A stretch of DNA of 53,134 nucleotides from an uncultured Candidatus Saccharibacteria bacterium (lineage in GTDB: Bacteria; Patescibacteriota; Doudnabacteria; UBA920; O2-02-FULL-48-8). This document shows positions 121 to 47,653 of the stretch, one piece after another; the stretch's first letter is position 1; each line of letters begins with the position of its first letter. The notes beneath the pieces were generated by a model, which saw nothing but the letters and a program-made list of their open reading frames with translations, ran no database searches and was not told the origin of the DNA. A program made the position numbers and the translations under genes. Where the stretch lies: NCBI GenBank assembly GCA_964580495.1, contig CAZOKE010000002.1:1-53134 (forward strand), given 5' to 3'.

Positions 121-3100
121 TGTGGGAGTGGATGAAGAAATTGCCATTTTGGAACCCCAAATCTGGCTTGTGCCGCTGGTGGCATCCAGCCAAATCGCAT
201 TAACATAATTGGCAGTGGCAGCCAAATAAGGCACCTGGGAATCACCAGGATTGTTTGTGACTTGCTGTTCGGGTCCCCAAGTCAAACCTCCATCTGTAGA
301 GCTGCGGGCATAAATATCCCAGTTGCCATTGCGATCATCGCCCCAAGCCATATAAAGATTGTTGCCCTGCGAAATTAGATAGCTATGGCTGGAATTGGAG
401 CTGTTGGGAACCATTTCCAGCGGAGTGGACCAAGTGGTGCCGCCATCTGTGGAGCGAGAGAAGAAAATAACCGTGTAGTTATTTGGTCCCAAAATTTCTT
501 GTTCCCAGGTCAAATCCAGGACTCCCGGTGAAGGAATGGTCACAATTGGACGACCGGCATAAGCGTTATTTGGGACAATGTGGGTATCAGCTCCCCAGCT
601 GTTGCCGCCGTCAGCGGATTTTTTCATGTAAACCTGGTCGCAGCCGACTTGGTTATAACAGTTGGCAGGAAGGATGCTGGCGTCGCGTCCATCCGCCCAG
701 AACACATAGACATTGCTGCCGGAGATGGCCACATCCGGACGATTTGCTCCGGTATTGTTGATTCCTGAAACTAATTTAACTTCCGGCTGCCAAGTATTGC
801 CAGCGTCAGTAGACCGTCTCATGTAAAGATCCCAAGTCGTGCCCGAACGATAATCCGACCAGACCAAGACGACATTCGATCCTGACGCAGCCATGCCGAC
901 CCGGTAGGCTTTAGCCGAGGTGGTGAGTTGAGCTTCTGGACCCCAGGTGTTGCCACCATCTGCTGATTTGCGATAGAAAATATCACCAACATCCCGCTGA
1001 CAGCATGAATCCACAAAAGAGTTCTGATTCTTCATATAAGTCGCATAGAGATTGGAACCATCAGCATAAATCGGACGGTCGAGATGCACATCAGCTCCGG
1101 GAGCTAAATTAAGTGGGGTGCTCCAAGTGCTCCCTTGATCAGTGGACCGCTGATAATATGCATTGCCCAATCCATACAAAAGGTGCAGCACACCATTGGA
1201 ACTATCAAAACCATACATGCTGTCTCCATTGGCATCATTGGTAAGTTGTTGAGGAGTGGACCAAGCATTGCTGGTTGTGCCGCCTACCGTAAACGTCTTG
1301 GGTGAACCAGTAAGTAGAGTTGATTTGGTGGAATCATTAAGATCTATACCATAAGCATAATAGCTGTGGGCTGTGCCATCCCGCAGGTTGCTTGGAATTG
1401 CGAACTGGAAGCCGTGGTTGCCGGTAATGTTGTAAGCGGTATTAACATCAGGCCGTAGGACACTGGTTAAGACTGTGCCAATGAGAGTCCCGGTTCCTAC
1501 TGGACCGCCGGTGAAGATCTGGACCGAGTTGGATTGGCTGGATAGGTCTGGATCAAAGGACCAGCCATAGAGAGTCACGCCATCACTCATTAATCCGTCA
1601 AAGTTGCCCAAAGGAAGGTTATTGGTTGCTGAAGACACTGTGACCGTAGCAGTGGCTGTGGTCGATCCGGCAGAGTTGGTGGCAGTGATGGTGTAGGTGG
1701 TCGTGGCTGTGGGAGAGACTGTGGTAGACCCTGAGGCGGCAACAGTGCCAACGGTCGGGCTTATCGATACCGAAGTAGCATTAGAAGTAGACCAAGTCAG
1801 GGTTGAAGATTGTCCAGATGAAATAGAAGTTGGAGATGCGGAGATGGTTGCGGTTGGTTTTGAAACCGTACCAACGGTGACCGTAGCCGTGGCTGTGGTT
1901 GATCCGGCAGAATTGGTAGCAGTGATAGTGTAGGTGGTGGTGGCTGTGGGAGAAACAGACAGGGAACCGGATGAGGCTACTGTCCCAATGTTCGGCGAAA
2001 TAGATACAGAAGTAGCGTTAGAAGTAGACCAGCTAAGAGTAGCAGAACCGCCTGATGTAATAGAACTAGGAGAAGCGGAAATGGAAGCAGTGGGCAGACC
2101 GGAGCTGTTGGAATTAATGGCAAAAACATAAATGGCATTAGAGCTCGAATTCGTAGAGTTGGGGCTCATAGCTCCCTGGATTGATATCATAAATTGCTTG
2201 GCAGACGGATCAACCATGGTGCTGACCGGAGTATTGCCAGCGCCAACTCCGCTTCCGCAAGCTGGACAACCGAAAGCCTGGATCATGGAGTTCAAATCCA
2301 TTTCCTGACTTGGGGTGACGTTATAGCTAGCCCTGGTGCCTGCTATGACCTGGGCGTACTGGGCCGGATCATAAATCTGCAGTCTATAAGTCGATCGAGA
2401 ACATCCTGGGCTGCCATGGGCATAGATACAGCCGAAGTACACCGGACCGCCTGGTATTGGCTTGTGGCTGTTGTTACTGAAATCTGGGCTCCAAACATGG
2501 AATTTGACAAAACCCGTGGAGTTATTAACCGAATCAATTACTGCAATGGATTTATCATCGTTGTTGGGAGCGGAACAACCCGCGTCAACTCCAGCGGTGC
2601 AACTCTGATACCAGATCGTGTCACCTGGATTCATATGCAAACCATCATTGGTGCTGGTTGAACCGATGTACATCGTGCCATTGAGACTGGCGTCGATTGT
2701 CGGAGCCGGACTTGCCAGAATCTTGGTGTTGGCCCAACCTTCAGAGGTGAGCATTGAAGTTAAAATGCCATTTTTCGCACCATCGTCATACCAGTTAGAT
2801 GTAAAGTATGTACCAAACCCTACAAACCCTTGACCATTGTAGGGCTCCCAGTCAGTACCATAGATATCTTTGGAGTAATTGGTCATGTTTAAACGGCCGG
2901 GATAAGGAGCGCTTGGAACACCGACCGGGGTACAACCCAAGCCCAAGCCGGCGCAAGATGGCCCAGTATCATTGTAAGGATAGTTGGCCATGATCGTGCC
3001 GTTTACCGGGTTATCCGTATTGGCAGCGCAAGAATTGGAAGTCGGATTGACTGCCACCATGCTCGGACCATAGGACATTTCTCCGGAGACCGAAGCGATG

Positions 3101-3804
3101 TTGCCGCCAAAACCTAATCCTATGTGCTGACCGGCTGGAAGGTTGGAGGCAAACGAAGATGGGATGTTGACCATGCCGCTGCCGGTTACAGATTGGCCCA
3201 AACCGTTGACACCCCAGCAGCCAGTAGTGCTTAAAGTGTGATTGGAATAATTTAAACTAGCTTCCGCAAAGGAGTTATGGCTTAAACCCACAGTCGCGTA
3301 CGTATTGGCCCAGTTCAGCATCAAATTATTGGTCGTGGTGTCATAGCCCAATCCAAAAGCAAAAACATCAGCATTGCCCGGGACTACAGAATAACCCTTT
3401 TCAACACTGACACCCGCATTGACTTTTATCTGGCCCCAATCCCCGCCCCAGCTTTCAAAGCTGGCCCGAGGCATGGAGGTTTGCGGAGAGCTGCAAGGCG
3501 CTAAGGTTGAAGGTTCCGGAAACTCCCAGGCATGATCATTGCCATCAAGCATAAAATAATGCCGTTTACCATCGCTTTCATATTTAAATGTAGTAGCGCC
3601 ATTGGTGTTGTCGGATCCCCAACCTACTCCGGGAGTTAAAAAAGCTCCAACACAGGTGATGTCGGAGGGGCTAATTAGACTGGTCGCCGCTTGTGCAACC
3701 GCAGGTTGCACAGTCAAAAAACTCACTGGCAAGAACGGGAAACCTAGTGAAACTATATATAAAACCACCGCAATCTTACGAAAAGATTGTCTGAACATGG
3801 ACAT
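1..3804 (-). CDS. Giant secreted multidomain surface protein with its 3' end cut by the window edge (at least 1268 aa). Order: signal peptide, ~540-aa Gly/Asn/Cys-rich domain of unknown fold, two tandem 79-aa Ig-like repeats, a ~115-aa module (GNFDG...GWSFDP...RPDV...HGF), a six-Asp-box (BNR, sialidase-type) propeller, then a third Ig-like repeat.
   Basis: Not in the supplied ORF track. Reading plus-strand triplets from position 1, no in-frame tta/cta/tca occurs up to 3804. The ATG is the reverse complement of cat at 3802-3804 and is preceded by an in-frame stop (tta 3814-3816). N-terminus is MSMFRQSFRKIAVVLYIVSLGFPFLPVSFLTVQPAVAQA. Asp-boxes (S-x-D-x-G-x-T/S-W) are encoded at 1120-1148, 942-968, 787-813, 592-618, 427-453 and 274-300. 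Confidence 0.85.
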   Translation of the reverse strand, partial: MSMFRQSFRKIAVVLYIVSLGFPFLPVSFLTVQPAVAQAATSLISPSDITCVGAFLTPGVGWGSDNTNGATTFKYESDGKRHYFMLDGNDHAWEFPEPSTLAPCSSPQTSMPRASFESWGGDWGQIKVNAGVSVEKGYSVVPGNADVFAFGLGYDTTTNNLMLNWANTYATVGLSHNSFAEASLNYSNHTLSTTGCWGVNGLGQSVTGSGMVNIPSSFASNLPAGQHIGLGFGGNIASVSGEMSYGPSMVAVNPTSNSCAANTDNPVNGTIMANYPYNDTGPSCAGLGLGCTPVGVPSAPYPGRLNMTNYSKDIYGTDWEPYNGQGFVGFGTYFTSNWYDDGAKNGILTSMLTSEGWANTKILASPAPTIDASLNGTMYIGSTSTNDGLHMNPGDTIWYQSCTAGVDAGCSAPNNDDKSIAVIDSVNNSTGFVKFHVWSPDFSNNSHKPIPGGPVYFGCIYAHGSPGCSRSTYRLQIYDPAQYAQVIAGTRASYNVTPSQEMDLNSMIQAFGCPACGSGVGAGNTPVSTMVDPSAKQFMISIQGAMSPNSTNSSSNAIYVFAINSNSSGLPTASISASPSSITSGGSATLSWSTSNATSVSISPNIGTVASSGSLSVSPTATTTYTITATNSAGSTTATATVTVGTVSKPTATISASPTSISSGQSSTLTWSTSNATSVSISPTVGTVAASGSTTVSPTATTTYTITATNSAGSTTATATVTVSSATNNLPLGNFDGLMSDGVTLYGWSFDPDLSSQSNSVQIFTGGPVGTGTLIGTVLTSVLRPDVNTAYNITGNHGFQFAIPSNLRDGTAHSYYAYGIDLNDSTKSTLLTGSPKTFTVGGTTSNAWSTPQQLTNDANGDSMYGFDSSNGVLHLLYGLGNAYYQRSTDQGSTWSTPLNLAPGADVHLDRPIYADGSNLYATYMKNQNSFVDSCCQRDVGDIFYRKSADGGNTWGPEAQLTTSAKAYRVGMAASGSNVVLVWSDYRSGTTWDLYMRRSTDAGNTWQPEVKLVSGINNTGANRPDVAISGSNVYVFWADGRDASILPANCYNQVGCDQVYMKKSADGGNSWGADTHIVPNNAYAGRPIVTIPSPGVLDLTWEQEILGPNNYTVIFFSRSTDGGTTWSTPLEMVPNSSNSSHSYLISQGNNLYMAWGDDRNGNWDIYARSSTDGGLTWGPEQQVTNNPGDSQVPYLAATANYVNAIWLDATSGTSQIWGSKMAISSSTPTLPTATISANPTSITSGSSSTLTWSTSNATSVSISPNIGTV
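1627..2097. repeat. Two tandem ~237-bp coding repeats (79-aa Ig-like modules, consensus ...ISASP.SI.SG.S.TL.WSTSNATSVSISP..GTVA.SGS..VSPTATTTYTITATNSAGSTTATATVTV).
   Basis: Period 237 bp. It also shows as the paired antisense track ORFs 1697..1933 and 1934..2131, which have near-identical peptides. Confidence 0.9.
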
Positions 3805-3869
3805 ATTTTTAATTTAATTTTATTTTTGTTTCTAGCTTCTCTATTAACTTATCTATATTATAGCATAAT

Positions 3870-44508: not shown

Positions 44509-44697
44509 ATCCAGCACCTTGTTCGTTTGATTATTGTAGTGCAAAAACTTCTTAACAATCCCATAGTTTGCTGTAATATAGGAATGTTGCAGGAAGGTGC
44601 TGGATAAACTTGACTGGTTCCAAAACTTAGCTACACTAAATTTATCAATTAATGCGCGGCGCCTGTTTTACACCACAGGCAAAAAGAAAGAAAGCAT

Positions 44698-45726
44698 ATG
44701 GCAAAAGGAAGCAACAAAATTGAATCTGCCGGAAACCTGGAAGAGACCCTGGCCTCGATTCGAGACAAGTTTGGCGAGGGTTCGATCATGACTCTGCAAA
44801 AAGCCAAGACCATGAATGTCGAAACAATTTCGACGGGATCGATCTCGCTCGATCTCGCTCTGGGCGGCGGCATTCCGAAAGGGCGTATCATAGAAATTTT
44901 TGGTCCGGAAGGCAGCGGCAAAACTACGCTCGCTCTTCACATCATCGCCGAAGTCCAAAAGCATGGCGGCGTGGCGTCGTTCATCGATGCTGAACACGCA
45001 CTCGATCCGGAGCGCGCCAAGGCGGTGGGAGTGAAGGTCGACAAGCTTTTGATTTCACAACCGGACTCTGGCGAGCAAGCGCTCGACATCGTCGAAGCTT
45101 TGGTGAGATCAAATTCCATCGACGTCATCGTCATCGACTCAGTCGCAGCACTAACGCCAAGAGCGGAGCTCGAAGGGGAAATGGGAGATTCGCACATGGG
45201 CTTGCATGCCAGACTCATGTCGCAAGCGTTGCGTAAGCTCACCGGGATAATTTCCAAGTCGAAATCAACAGTAATTTTCATAAACCAGATCCGAATGAAG
45301 ATCGGAGTCATGTTTGGCAATCCGGAAACTACCCCGGGCGGCCGGGCGCTGCCGTTTTATACTTCGGTGCGCATCGACATCCGCAAGATGACCCAAATCA
45401 AGCAAGGTGAAAACATCGTCGGCAACCACGTGCGCGCCAAGGTTGTGAAAAATAAAGTTGCTCCGCCTTTTCGCTGGACTGAATTCGACATCATGTTTTC
45501 GGAAGGCGGAATTTCCTATGCCGGAGATTTGCTCGACACGGCGGCAATGCAAAACGTCATTGCCAAGTCCGGCAACACTTACAGCTTTGGCGAAACAAAA
45601 CTTGGCATAGGCCGGGAGAACGCCAAAAAGTTTCTCCTCGACAATCCCAAAGTTGCCGCAGAGATCGACAAGGCCGTACGGAAGAAAGCGAAAGAGGTCG
45701 AATTAGCCCCAGGCTCGGGTGAATAA
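44698..45726 (+). CDS. recA: Recombinase RecA
   Basis: 342 aa. [12 protein letters not shown] Walker [30 protein letters not shown]. Confidence 0.97.
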
Positions 45727-45742
45727 GCACTCGATTTTTAGC

Positions 45743-45778
45743 AATCCAGCCCCACTTCTCGAAAGGGGCTGGATTTTT
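45743..45778 (+). terminator. recA intrinsic terminator
   Basis: aatccagcccc-acttctcgaaa-ggggctggatt followed by tttt. Confidence 0.85.
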
Positions 45779-45912
45779 CGTTCAACTCGTGAAACTTGAG
45801 GATAATCCAGCTCCACTTTTTATTTTTTTCAAAAAATAAATGTGGATTGTATGCCTCTAAAATTAATTTTGTTTAATGTTTTCAACGATTTTTGTAAAAA
45901 AGTGGTGCTGGA

Positions 45913-45941
45913 TTGACAGCGGCATCTTTTTTTGCTATAAT
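45913..45941 (+). promoter_or_regulatory. Perfect-consensus sigma-70-type promoter with no ORF behind it
   Basis: TTGACA (45913-18), exact 17-nt spacer ending in tgc (extended -10 TGn), TATAAT (45936-41). Confidence 0.65.
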
Positions 45942-45947
45942 ACCTTC

Positions 45948-46436
45948 AGAACATTAAAAACCAAATAGGAAATGGCACACCTAGATGCTAGTGAAGGAGA
46001 TTTCAATCCTTAAATTCAGTTGAGGATTGGAAGTTCTTTCACTATTCGTCATAGCTGTTCTAGTCCAGCTGCTTGTAAAACAAAAATAAAAATACGTTTT
46101 ATATAAAAAAAATAAAACCAAAATAAAAAACAAAAAGTTTGTTAGGTCGAATAGACCATAAGAACAGTGATTGAACAAAAAGCTTATAAATTGACTAGAC
46201 ATATAGGCATCATTTAAAGGTTTCTGATCTAACATGTTTACCTCTGTTCTAGGCTTTGGCGCTTAAACAAAATTTGAGCCCCGCAGCCTACGAACGGAGA
46301 TAAGCTGAGAACAGAGATCTCCGGAGCGGAGACGCGCTACATTAATTTATATATATGAGCGGACTGACTCCGCTCCAAACCACTTTAATAAAAGTTTGGA
46401 GCGAAAATTGCAAGACCCGGGTAAGGTCTTTTTTTG
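45948..46436 (+). ncRNA. Candidate ~490-nt structured non-coding RNA (family not recognised)
   Basis: Runs from promoter to terminator (aagacc-cgggtaa-ggtctt plus T7, 46413-36). The longest plus-strand ATG ORF I found is 38 codons and has no Shine-Dalgarno sequence. A 21-bp hairpin at 45990-46043 has 3 G-U pairs valid only on the plus strand. Long-range helices: ctgttct/agaacag (46055-61/46161-67), ctctgttct/agaacagag (46242-50/46308-16), ggagcggag/ctccgctcc (46323-31/46368-76). Confidence 0.4.
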
Positions 46437-46481
46437 TTGCCCGGATTTTGGTATACTGCAACCAGCATTAAATAAACGATT

Positions 46482-46841
46482 ATGATTTCAAAAGAGCTGA
46501 TTGAAGAAAATAAGAAAAGGTTGCTGGAGGAACAAAAGCGATTGCAAAAAGTTTTGAACCACGAAGATATCAAAGACGGCAAAGGAGAATTTCCGGGCGA
46601 CTACAAACCCAAGTATGACGAGCTCGGGAACGAAGAAGGGGATAATGCTTCCGAGGTTGAAAATTTCAGCAATCAACTTGGCGTCACGGAAGACCTCGAA
46701 TCGCAATTGAAAAAAATTGAATGGGCGTTGGCCCGGATCGAAAACGGGACATATGGCGTGTGCGCCGAAGGGGATGAGATAGAAGAAGATCGCTTGCGCG
46801 CTTTGCCGACTGCCGAGACTTGCATCAAGCATGCGAAATAG
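46482..46841 (+). CDS. DksA/TraR-family protein (partial zinc-finger Cys set)
   Basis: 119 aa. Coiled-coil N-terminus. C-terminal ARIENGTYGVCAEGDEIEEDRLRALPTAETCIKH. Confidence 0.65.
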   Translation: MISKELIEENKKRLLEEQKRLQKVLNHEDIKDGKGEFPGDYKPKYDELGNEEGDNASEVENFSNQLGVTEDLESQLKKIEWALARIENGTYGVCAEGDEIEEDRLRALPTAETCIKHAK

Positions 46842-47247
46842 ATTTGCTTTTTATTTTCTGTTGTTGTTAGTTGTTGATCAAATCACGAAATTTGTTTTTG
46901 CATCTCGTGATTTTTTCTTATCCGGCATTCATCTGCATTTGGTAAAGAATTATGGTTTGTCCTTCGGATTAAATTTAGGCAACCTTATCAACTTGTTAGT
47001 TGTAATTGTTTCATTCATTGTTTTTATTCTTTACGTCCCAAACTTAACGCGCGGAAATTTTAATTGGGGATTGCCAATGATTTTAGCAGGTGCAGTGTCG
47101 AATCTTTTGGACCGGCTGACCTTGGGATATGTTCGGGATTTTATTGATCTCAATTTGGGTTTTACATTTAATGTAGCCGATATCTTTATCGTTTTAGGCC
47201 TGTTGGCTTTATTTTTAATTAATAATCAAGAGCAGGCTGTGGAATGA
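46831..47247 (+). CDS. lspA: Lipoprotein signal peptidase (signal peptidase II)
   Basis: 138 aa. NYGLSFGL, VRDFIDL and FNVADIFI motifs. Overlaps the previous gene by 11 nt. Confidence 0.85.
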   Translation: MRNRFAFYFLLLLVVDQITKFVFASRDFFLSGIHLHLVKNYGLSFGLNLGNLINLLVVIVSFIVFILYVPNLTRGNFNWGLPMILAGAVSNLLDRLTLGYVRDFIDLNLGFTFNVADIFIVLGLLALFLINNQEQAVE

Positions 47248-47361: not shown

Positions 47362-47481
47362 ATGGCAGAACAGAAGAAACGATCAGGACGCGGTTGGCAT
47401 GGTGATCCGGAAGGACATGCCCGGGCCGGGAGGCAGGGCGGACGGGCGCGCGGGCGCAGTCGAGGTTCAAGCAACAGCTAA
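47362..47481 (+). CDS. 39-aa KGG/stress-induced-repeat-like basic peptide
   Basis: Below the track cutoff. aaggaggtgg Shine-Dalgarno sequence. MAEQKKRSGRGWHGDPEGHARAGRQGGRARGRSRGSSNS. Terminator at 47497-47525. Confidence 0.6.
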   Translation: MAEQKKRSGRGWHGDPEGHARAGRQGGRARGRSRGSSNS

Positions 47482-47576: not shown

Positions 47577-47653
47577 GCGCGTGTAGCTCAACTGGTTAGA
47601 GCAAGTGTCTTATACACACTAGGTTCCTGGTTCGAGTCCAGGCACGCGCACCA
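47577..47653 (+). tRNA. tRNA with anticodon UAU (reads AUA, presumed tRNA-Ile)
   Basis: GCGCGTG/CACGCGC acceptor stem, anticodon stem AGTGT/ACACT, loop CTTATAC, T-arm CCTGG-TTCGAGT-CCAGG, CCA encoded. Confidence 0.85.

Follow-up and report, generated by a model that had tools for sequence, protein, structure and literature searches.

A candidate family of large structured non-coding RNAs upstream of a DksA-like gene in Doudnabacteria-related Patescibacteria

A 53,134-nucleotide (nt) stretch of DNA from an uncultured bacterium of the Patescibacteria, or Candidate Phyla Radiation (CPR), which we call here the window, carries a long spacer between recA and a gene of the DksA/TraR family. Within this spacer, positions 45913-46437 of the plus strand hold a promoter, about 490 nt in which no open reading frame (ORF) is conserved, and an intrinsic terminator. 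We hold, with moderate confidence, that this unit is an independently transcribed gene for a large, structured, stand-alone and trans-acting non-coding RNA (ncRNA) that has not been described before. Judging from sequence comparisons, the most fitting description is a new family of large bacterial ncRNAs, so far found only in a CPR lineage related to the Doudnabacteria. An initial annotation of the window had proposed an independently transcribed RNA of unknown class at this place, and its conservation, its covarying base pairs and the lack of any match to a known family support that proposal.

The spacer (45727-46481, 755 bp) is bounded by recA (44698-45726) and by the DksA/TraR-family gene (46482-46841), and is the largest stretch of the window without genes or tRNAs. 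Two stretches that seemed to be larger gaps (1-2193 and 2662-3869) were rejected, as they are part of a long minus-strand ORF that leaves the window at its start. The promoter (45913-45941, plus strand) is composed of a -35 box TTGACA (45913-18), a 17-nt T-rich spacer ending in TG (45933-34; TGc) and a -10 box TATAAT (45936-41). It scores 12/12 against the sigma-70 consensus and is the sole site to do so when both strands of the window are scanned, the next-best promoters reaching 11/12. Transcription is predicted to start near A45948, and from promoter quality only we infer a high abundance of the RNA. The terminator (46412-46437, plus strand) consists of a stem at 46412-46430 (AAGACC-CGGGUAA-GGUCUU) followed by U7. 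The initial annotation had thus been accurate in singling out the gap as the largest non-coding one, its promoter as the best of the window, with an exact 17-nt spacer and a TGn element, and a plus-oriented terminator near 46413-36.

Homologues of the RNA were found in about 20 distinct loci from metagenomes and metagenome-assembled genomes (MAGs). They form three divergent clades of the Doudnabacteria-related CPR lineage: family A (the window and 16 further loci, 14 of them essentially full length), the single locus L001 (a Doudnabacteria MAG) and clade B (L008 and L112-L117). Family A loci were gathered by a pattern scan of metagenomes, synteny look-ups and nhmmer. An exact look-up of the window's DksA-like protein returned a 1.2-kb contig alone; contigs bearing homologues of this protein at 58-88% identity show the order recA, a gap of 600-1050 nt, the dksA-like gene, lspA and, further on, lexA. 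A degenerate pattern built from two invariant blocks and run on JGI metagenomes retrieved 12 further true loci together with five chance matches within coding DNA (L090, L094, L095, L099 and L104), which were rejected, as were three chance matches from a scan of viral contigs. The divergent relatives L001 and L008 were exposed by nhmmer on recA loci; RecA is too conserved for a recA-based locus search in GTDB, and these two were the only useful loci among the matches listed. Look-ups with the DksA-like protein of L008 gave L112-L117. A core covariance model, R1, scores 94-138 bits for members of family A, L001 and clade B. Its search of 100 sequence sources yielded no further members, and two weak candidates (L028 and L034, E = 0.12-0.45) were set aside because they look like A-rich noise. 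Distant DksA homologues (L106 at 45% identity, and the Parcubacteria L107 and L108) have neither an upstream gap nor the RNA. As far as sampled, the RNA appears confined to Doudnabacteria-related Patescibacteria: the closest GTDB RecA among the matches listed belongs to a Candidatus Doudnabacteria MAG (74% identity), and the homologues of the DksA-like protein are labeled Doudnabacteria or Patescibacteria by their sources.

Alignment of the related recA-dksA spacers, which had been suggested as a check on the RNA, reveals conservation from promoter to terminator as well as compensatory changes of base pairs. The -35 box marks the exact start of the alignable block and the U-tract its end, and both flanks are unalignable. 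In full-length comparisons with five relatives of the window, the nucleotide identity of the RNA is 71-83%, while it is 67-76% for recA DNA, 70-79% for dksA DNA and 18-42% for the spacer upstream of the promoter. The RNA is at least as well conserved as the coding DNA of recA and dksA on either side of it. The relatives' RNAs measure 450-600 nt. The promoter pattern TTGAC(A/G)-17-TAnAnT is kept in all full-length homologues of the three clades; a stem followed by 6-8 U, with varying stem sequences, ends the unit in every family A member and in L001, and the terminator of clade B is less clear-cut.

This conservation is not that of a protein gene. The longest plus-strand ORF within the unit has 28 amino acids (aa), in keeping with the earlier remark that nothing credible is translated after the promoter. 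On the minus strand, an ORF of 84 codons (45981-46235) had been named as a possible objection to an RNA gene if it were conserved. Its length, position and frame all vary among homologues, the longest opposite-strand ORFs of 16-17 of them having 25-130 aa at unrelated positions, and its product has no Pfam match. The alignment of the RNA shows 1-nt insertions and deletions and no codon periodicity, and neither strand displays a conserved ORF.

The plus-strand fold of 45948-46440 (493 nt) reaches -150 kcal/mol with z = -8.9, the minus strand having z = -6.0. Comparison of the homologues predicts two domains, all on the plus strand: a 5' domain made of hairpin P1, a long-range helix (LR) and hairpins P2 and P3, and a 3' domain made of P4, P5-P7 and P8. 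The RNA begins with a 5' tail and a small variable hairpin (45948-45988). The tail starts with AGAACAUUAAAAAC and contains GAACAUUAAAAAC, which is conserved in family A and resembles GCACAUUAACAAA of clade B. P1 (45989-46039) is a long hairpin with a variable tip; its base reads AAGGAG/UUCUUU in the window and GGAGAA/UUCUCC in most members, and 7/7 base pairs are changed on both sides across clades. In the window, the hairpin at 45989-46044 has 24 bp including 4 G-U pairs, with a folding energy of -28.8 kcal/mol on the plus strand versus -15.5 on the minus strand. The initial annotation had recognized this hairpin and its strand bias and had counted 21 bp with three G-U pairs, close to the present numbers.

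Helix LR spans 46040-46169. Its 5' strand, CACUAUUC (46040-47), directly follows P1 and pairs with GAACAGUG (46162-69), 115 nt downstream, closing a multiloop that holds P2, two A-rich strands with a small variable hairpin, and P3. The helix exists in different versions, each of them complementary: CACUAUUC/GAACAGUG in family A, UACUGUCC/GGACAGUA in L001 and AGCUCUUC/GAGGAGCU in clade B. It is also present in the unconstrained minimum free energy structures of L001 and all clade B members. An outer extension of LR proposed by RNAalifold (GUU/AAC) was not adopted, as it conflicts with P1. The fifth position of the helix (46044 with 46165) is an A-C mismatch, invariant in 16/17 family A members; L093 has A-U here, L001 has G-C and clade B has C-G. 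The mismatch may be a non-canonical pair that matters for function, or a wobble with a protonated A (A+C).

Inside the multiloop, P2 (46052-46071; UAGCUG/CAGCUG with the conserved loop UUCUAGUC) is 100% paired in 17 sequences, with double changes from UA to CG and from GC to AU, and shows two more compensated pairs in L001. The segment at 46077-46135 comprises the A-rich strands AAAACAAAAAUAAAAA and AAAAUAAAACCAAAAUAAAAAACAAAAA on both sides of the small variable hairpin. The strands are predicted to be unstructured, and many of their A columns are invariant across all three clades; the A-rich segment noticed from the window alone is thus a conserved part of the RNA. P3 (46145-46157; GGUC-GAAUA-GACC) is a short hairpin whose fourth pair is CG in 10 sequences, GC in 7, AU in 2 and GU in 1, and its deeper pairs covary too.

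The 3' domain, as seen in family A, opens with P4 (46182-46208; GCUUAUA/UAUAGGC with the conserved internal sequence AAUUGACUAGACA), in which 93% of cells are paired; most of them are invariant and the evidence from covariation is weak. P5-P7 form a long irregular hairpin arm of about 100 nt (46218-46320), with outer strands AGGUUUCUG/CAGAGAUCU and inner strands CCUCUGUUCUAGGC/GCCUACGAACGGAG. In this arm, for which RNAalifold was also used, 86% of the cells of 43 pairs are paired (38-50% in slid controls) and 28/43 pairs are changed on both sides. P8 (46323-46376) surrounds an AU-rich loop. Its outer helix GGAGCGGAG/CUCCGCUCC (46323-31 with 46368-76) occurs in at least six sequence versions, the best duplex having -18 to -24 kcal/mol in 16/16 sequences, and its inner helix CGCU/AGCG (46335-38 with 46358-61) is 97% paired, with double changes. 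The outer 3' strand of P8 is used again by an alternative helix, P9 (46371-46403; CGCUCCAAAC/GUUUGGAGCG), so that the two are mutually exclusive. P9 was found in 14/16 members, being absent from L088 and L096; 84% of its cells are paired (23-46% in slid controls) and 6/10 of its pairs are changed on both sides. P8 and P9 thus constitute a conserved bistable element just ahead of the terminator. In 5/16 members (L087, L100, L091, L103 and L105), P9 reaches into the terminator stem with its 3' strand; in 8/13 P9-bearing members, the window among them, it is clear of the terminator.

We scored the 5' core on a MAFFT alignment that had not been fitted to the structure, using 500 shuffles and slid helices as controls. 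Pairing amounts to 93.9% versus 86.2% in shuffles (0/500) and 23-51% in slid controls, and eight pairs are changed on both sides versus 3.7 in shuffles (0/500). With the base of P1 included, 91.3% of cells are paired and 14 pairs are changed on both sides. The whole family A model contains 51 such pairs, with a covariation score of 0.243 versus 0.135 (0/500 shuffles). The fold of the large structured ncRNA envisaged from the window is therefore backed by compensatory changes across clades. A conserved non-coding unit and compensatory pairing in divergent lineages, the two marks of a new structured ncRNA family, are both present.

The RNA is rich in the hexamers AGAACA (45948, 46161 and 46308) and TGTTCT (46056 and 46245), all five of which lie exactly where the initial annotation had placed them. 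With 23 occurrences in the 53-kb window, about 0.24 would be expected per 550 nt. Four of these words had been thought to pair with one another as 7-bp and 9-bp helices delimiting domains. The complementarity does exist in the window, but both helices are out-competed in the comparative data. The 7-bp helix (46055-61 with 46161-67) is 96% paired in family A with hardly any variation; L088 and L102 break it, a 1-nt deletion puts it out of register in four members, and it cannot coexist with the fully paired and compensated P2 or with LR, which is found across clades. The 9-bp helix (46242-50 with 46308-16) is 72% paired, whereas the rival pairs of P7 are about 99% paired. The supported partners of the words are different: AGAACA at 46161 pairs with CACUAUUC (46040-47), TGTTCT at 46245 pairs with GAACGGAG (from about 46291), and TGTTCT at 46056 sits within hairpin P2. 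We also considered the GAAC words as SOS/LexA boxes and rejected this reading, finding no palindromic Cheo-type box at the RNA promoter.

No known RNA family accounts for the unit. At gathering thresholds, a scan of the whole window with Rfam 15 (4227 models) detected 12 tRNAs only, and a permissive scan of 45650-46550 at E<=10 gave nothing beyond scattered miRNA-type noise. In five related loci (L001, L008, L115, L100 and L088), Rfam at E<=5 gave nothing meaningful within the RNA. This agrees with the initial failure to match the sequence by eye to RNase P RNA, transfer-messenger RNA (tmRNA), signal recognition particle (SRP) RNA or 6S RNA, and the covariance-model scan then proposed has matched no known family. 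ARAGORN detected no tmRNA in the window or in five related loci, and no tRNA-like domain or tag; the RNA has no T-arm and no CCA end. A frame of the type ..SCSNPAA-stop (..PAA-UGA), seen in several members, was discarded as a tmRNA tag, being lost in the window and in L087 and located inside the covarying P2. The P4 signatures of RNase P (GAGGAAAGUCC and ACAGAA..GGCUUA) are absent from the sequence and no Rfam RNase P model matches at E<=10; a resemblance of GGAGAAAGCC to GAGGAAAGUCC was rejected as a sign of RNase P for want of a covariance-model match. SRP RNA models in Rfam gave no match. Those of 6S RNA gave none at gathering scores or E<=10 in the window, or at E<=5 in the five relatives, and the rod with a central bubble is not seen in an RNA of 450-600 nt with two multi-helix domains, in which we found no stem closing the 5' and 3' ends. 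OLE, ROOL, GOLLD, raiA, HEARO and the other large ncRNAs of Rfam had no model match in any clade. BLAST against phage genomes showed no similarity, and a full-text literature search found no description of the RNA.

In all three clades, every locus with sufficient flanking sequence has the DksA-like gene after the RNA and on its strand, while the 5' neighbor varies, being recA in family A and, in L001 and clade B, a gene resembling those of DEDDh exonucleases. In the window, the gene (46482-46841, plus strand) encodes 119 aa and is assigned by Pfam PF01258 with 25.8 bits against a cut-off of 24.9. It is followed on the plus strand by lspA (46831-47247; Pfam PF01252), a tRNA-Ile(UAU) gene and lexA. 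The Bacillus subtilis ylyA-lspA arrangement is a precedent for such a dksA-like/lspA pair. The terminator of the RNA lies 20-130 nt ahead of the DksA-like gene. The one locus where RNA and gene are not adjacent is L088, in which a 440-nt insert (2563-3000) separates the terminator from dksA; the 92-aa ORF on the opposite strand of this insert has no Pfam match. The DksA-like gene of the window is preceded by a putative extended -10 promoter outside the RNA (TGgTATACT, 46449-46457, plus strand). Nearly all of 18 loci have a TGnTATAaT-like element after the RNA terminator and before the dksA ATG, the least clear ones being those of L102 and L084; as consensus matches, these elements are putative promoters. 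In L100, L103, L001 and L008, the -10 box ends just 6-9 nt ahead of the ATG, which implies a leaderless dksA mRNA in part of the lineage.

We favor a stand-alone gene over a leader because the DksA-like gene seems to have its own extended -10 promoter. Transcription would initiate at about 45948 and stop at about 46437, and the RNA would accumulate to a high level as a stable molecule acting in trans. It would most likely work as a ribonucleoprotein (RNP), with a partner that recognizes the invariant unpaired nucleotides of the A-rich strands and junctions; these nucleotides may be recognition surfaces for a protein or for tertiary A-minor contacts, and the exchange between P8 and P9 would be a conformational switch. 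Our preferred guess is an abundant RNA, or RNP, that acts in trans and is linked to the DksA-like factor. Proteins of the DksA/TraR type bind the secondary channel of RNA polymerase, and a role in transcription control is favored because a DksA/TraR (YlyA-like) factor is the sole constant neighbor of the RNA in three clades. The RNA could then act in global transcription or stress control, as a functional analog, and not a homolog, of 6S and Ms1 RNAs. A bolder version of the proposal, to which we give somewhat less than even credence, holds that we are dealing with a CPR-specific class of ornate RNAs of about 0.5 kb, an RNP or RNA-only machine that uses its A-rich junctions and P8/P9 for a function as yet undescribed in bacterial RNAs. 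It might, for example, control RNA polymerase directly, in concert with the DksA/YlyA-like secondary-channel factor that is inherited along with it.

Several points weigh against a stand-alone trans-acting RNA linked to DksA. The ends of the transcript and its abundance are deduced from sequence signals alone. The association with DksA is drawn solely from conserved gene order, and the Pfam score of the protein is borderline. Strict adjacency to one gene, on one strand and over deep divergence, is also typical of cis-regulatory leaders, and an alternative such as P8/P9 beside a terminator looks like an expression platform. As for the fold, the compared sequences are related and the shuffle control ignores phylogeny; P4 and most of LR are nearly invariant within family A, leaving them with cross-clade support or none; and the 3' domain of clade B is not alignable with that of family A.

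The main alternative, though an unlikely one, is that the RNA serves the dksA-like/lspA operon in cis, as a giant leader or attenuator that senses a protein, an RNA or a metabolite. The input would shift the balance of P8 and P9, set the read-through of the terminator at 46412-37 and so add transcripts from the upstream promoter to dksA-lspA expression. The constancy of the downstream gene in all clades in spite of differing 5' neighbors, the intrinsic terminator shortly before that gene, and the covariation of both the outer helix of P8 and the mutually exclusive P9 are all what such a leader would present, and in five members P9 is placed as an antiterminator would be, its 3' strand running into the 5' strand of the terminator. 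However, P9 misses the terminator in 8/13 P9-bearing members, where the switch cannot control termination, and L088 and L096 are devoid of P9 altogether. The terminators, with runs of 7-8 U, look constitutive. In nearly every locus, the DksA-like gene has a putative extended -10 promoter of its own after the terminator, often in leaderless placement, and in L088 the insert with its opposite-strand ORF stands between RNA and gene. A length of 450-600 nt, combined with a perfect consensus promoter, is far beyond the range of known leaders and closer to stable RNAs.

Much less probable is a highly diverged housekeeping RNA (6S, tmRNA, RNase P or SRP) missed by current models. Housekeeping RNAs typically have strong promoters and are highly conserved, sequence searches are notorious for missing 6S RNAs, and none of the four RNAs occurs elsewhere in the 53-kb window, which means little as most of the genome lies outside it. 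Yet permissive Rfam filters at E<=10 gave no match, three clades were covered, ARAGORN was negative, the two-domain multiloop fold is not the 6S rod and carries no RNase P P4 signature, and 450-600 nt fits none of the four. Fainter still, and close to negligible, is the chance of a feature acting at the DNA level or as coding sequence, be it a small protein gene, a decayed pseudogene, or regulatory or curved A-tract DNA. The 84-codon minus-strand ORF of the window, the possible bending of DNA by A-tracts and the inverted GTGGnGCTGGAT repeats around the promoter could be invoked for it. But homologues do not preserve the length, position or frame of the ORF, Pfam has no match to it, a pseudogene would not match the conservation of recA, and the GTGGnGCTGGAT repeat is not conserved upstream of the RNA in relatives. 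Compensatory changes, G-U pairs that work on one strand and the plus-strand bias of the fold argue for selection on an RNA.

Several known RNAs offer points of comparison with the proposed stand-alone RNA. The raiA motif RNA, a large structured ncRNA of Firmicutes and Actinobacteria that has its own promoter and terminator and usually precedes raiA or comFC, is regarded as stand-alone. Our RNA is likewise large, with a promoter and terminator of its own, a fixed place upstream of one stress-related gene and a function that cannot be deduced from sequence; it differs by its lack of an Rfam match, a length about twofold greater, its occurrence in the CPR, its DksA/TraR-like neighbor and its long invariant A-rich strands. 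OLE RNA has conserved protein-gene neighbors and forms an RNP. Together with OLE, ROOL and GOLLD, our RNA shares a size of about 0.5 kb or more, a multi-domain covarying fold, invariant junctions and a narrow phylogenetic range, but it matches none of them in Rfam and has another host lineage and other neighbors. Unlike ROOL and GOLLD, which are found near tRNA clusters or prophages, it is not so placed and has no phage similarity. With 6S RNA and mycobacterial Ms1, it would share a presumed high expression, a stand-alone gene and, through its DksA-like neighbor, a possible link to the transcription machinery, a likeness of possible function only: it is 2.5-3 times longer than 6S RNA, is not a rod with a central bubble and has no Rfam match to 6S or Ms1. 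Attenuation leaders such as riboswitches, T-boxes and protein-binding leaders resemble it in lying on the same strand just upstream of one gene, with a terminator and mutually exclusive helices. It departs from them by the separate putative promoter that follows the terminator in nearly all loci, by an antiterminator-like overlap restricted to 5/16 members, by a length 2-4 times that of the largest known leaders and by the lack of a match to any cis-regulatory model of Rfam.

Few bacterial RNAs combine a length above about 400 nt with many conserved helices. Those described, including rRNAs, RNase P, group I and II introns, tmRNA, OLE, ROOL and GOLLD, are nearly all ribozymes, RNP cores or components of large assemblies. 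The genomes of CPR bacteria are tiny and encode few regulators, and most of these bacteria are uncultured. A non-coding gene of about 0.5 kb, under selection as strong as that of recA and with the best promoter in 53 kb, must matter to its host. Its fixed partnership with a DksA/TraR-type gene provides a testable hypothesis, that of an RNA and protein module acting on RNA polymerase, and the bistable P8/P9 element offers a handle for mechanistic work. If the hypothesis is true, an RNA machine controlling RNA polymerase would occur in organisms with minimal regulatory repertoires. In practice, the alignment and covariance model would let annotators label a gene that is now left as an empty spacer in MAGs.

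The surroundings of the RNA show further features. In L001 and L112-L115, the exonuclease-like gene, of about 750-800 aa, stands between recA and the RNA, and its clade B product contains the Pfam domain RNase_T. Genes for ComM-like (Mg-chelatase family), LexA, Fic and DUF3276 proteins are also found near the RNA in L001 and clade B. The RNA thus always resides in a neighborhood of the DNA-repair and competence type.

The 12-nt motif GTGGnGCTGGAT occurs in five copies around recA (44509-44520, minus; 44594-44605, plus; 45744-45755, minus; 45805-45816, minus; 45902-45913, plus; all with 0-1 mismatch) and, at this tolerance, nowhere else in the window. One inverted pair flanks about 85 nt upstream of recA, its right arm lying 5 nt ahead of the recA -35 box; a second flanks about 97 nt upstream of the RNA promoter, its right arm overlapping the -35 box of the RNA. 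One copy, with a more diverged partner, makes up the stem of the recA terminator. The repeats could be operators to which a common regulator binds, or could mark the termini of a small repeat element; relatives do not keep the motif upstream.

A minus-strand promoter scoring 11/12 (3885-3857; TAGACA-17-TGnTATAAT) precedes the long ORF that runs leftwards from 3803 past the window start, and whose product has a signal-peptide-like N-terminus. The tRNA-Ile(UAU) gene is kept between lspA and lexA in the window (47577-47653), L082 (4243-4317), L087 (4862-4938) and L088 (4163-4239). Most bacteria read AUA by means of a lysidine-modified CAU tRNA, and the UAU anticodon encoded in these genomes may say something about AUA decoding in the lineage. 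Finally, a 39-aa ORF rich in Arg and Gly (MAEQKKRSGRGWHGDPEGHARAGRQGGRARGRSRGSSNS) follows a strong AAGGAGGTG ribosome-binding site at 47362-47481 on the plus strand of the window. Genes of 40-44 aa stand at the equivalent position in L084, L085, L087 and L088, and the ORF probably encodes a real small basic protein.

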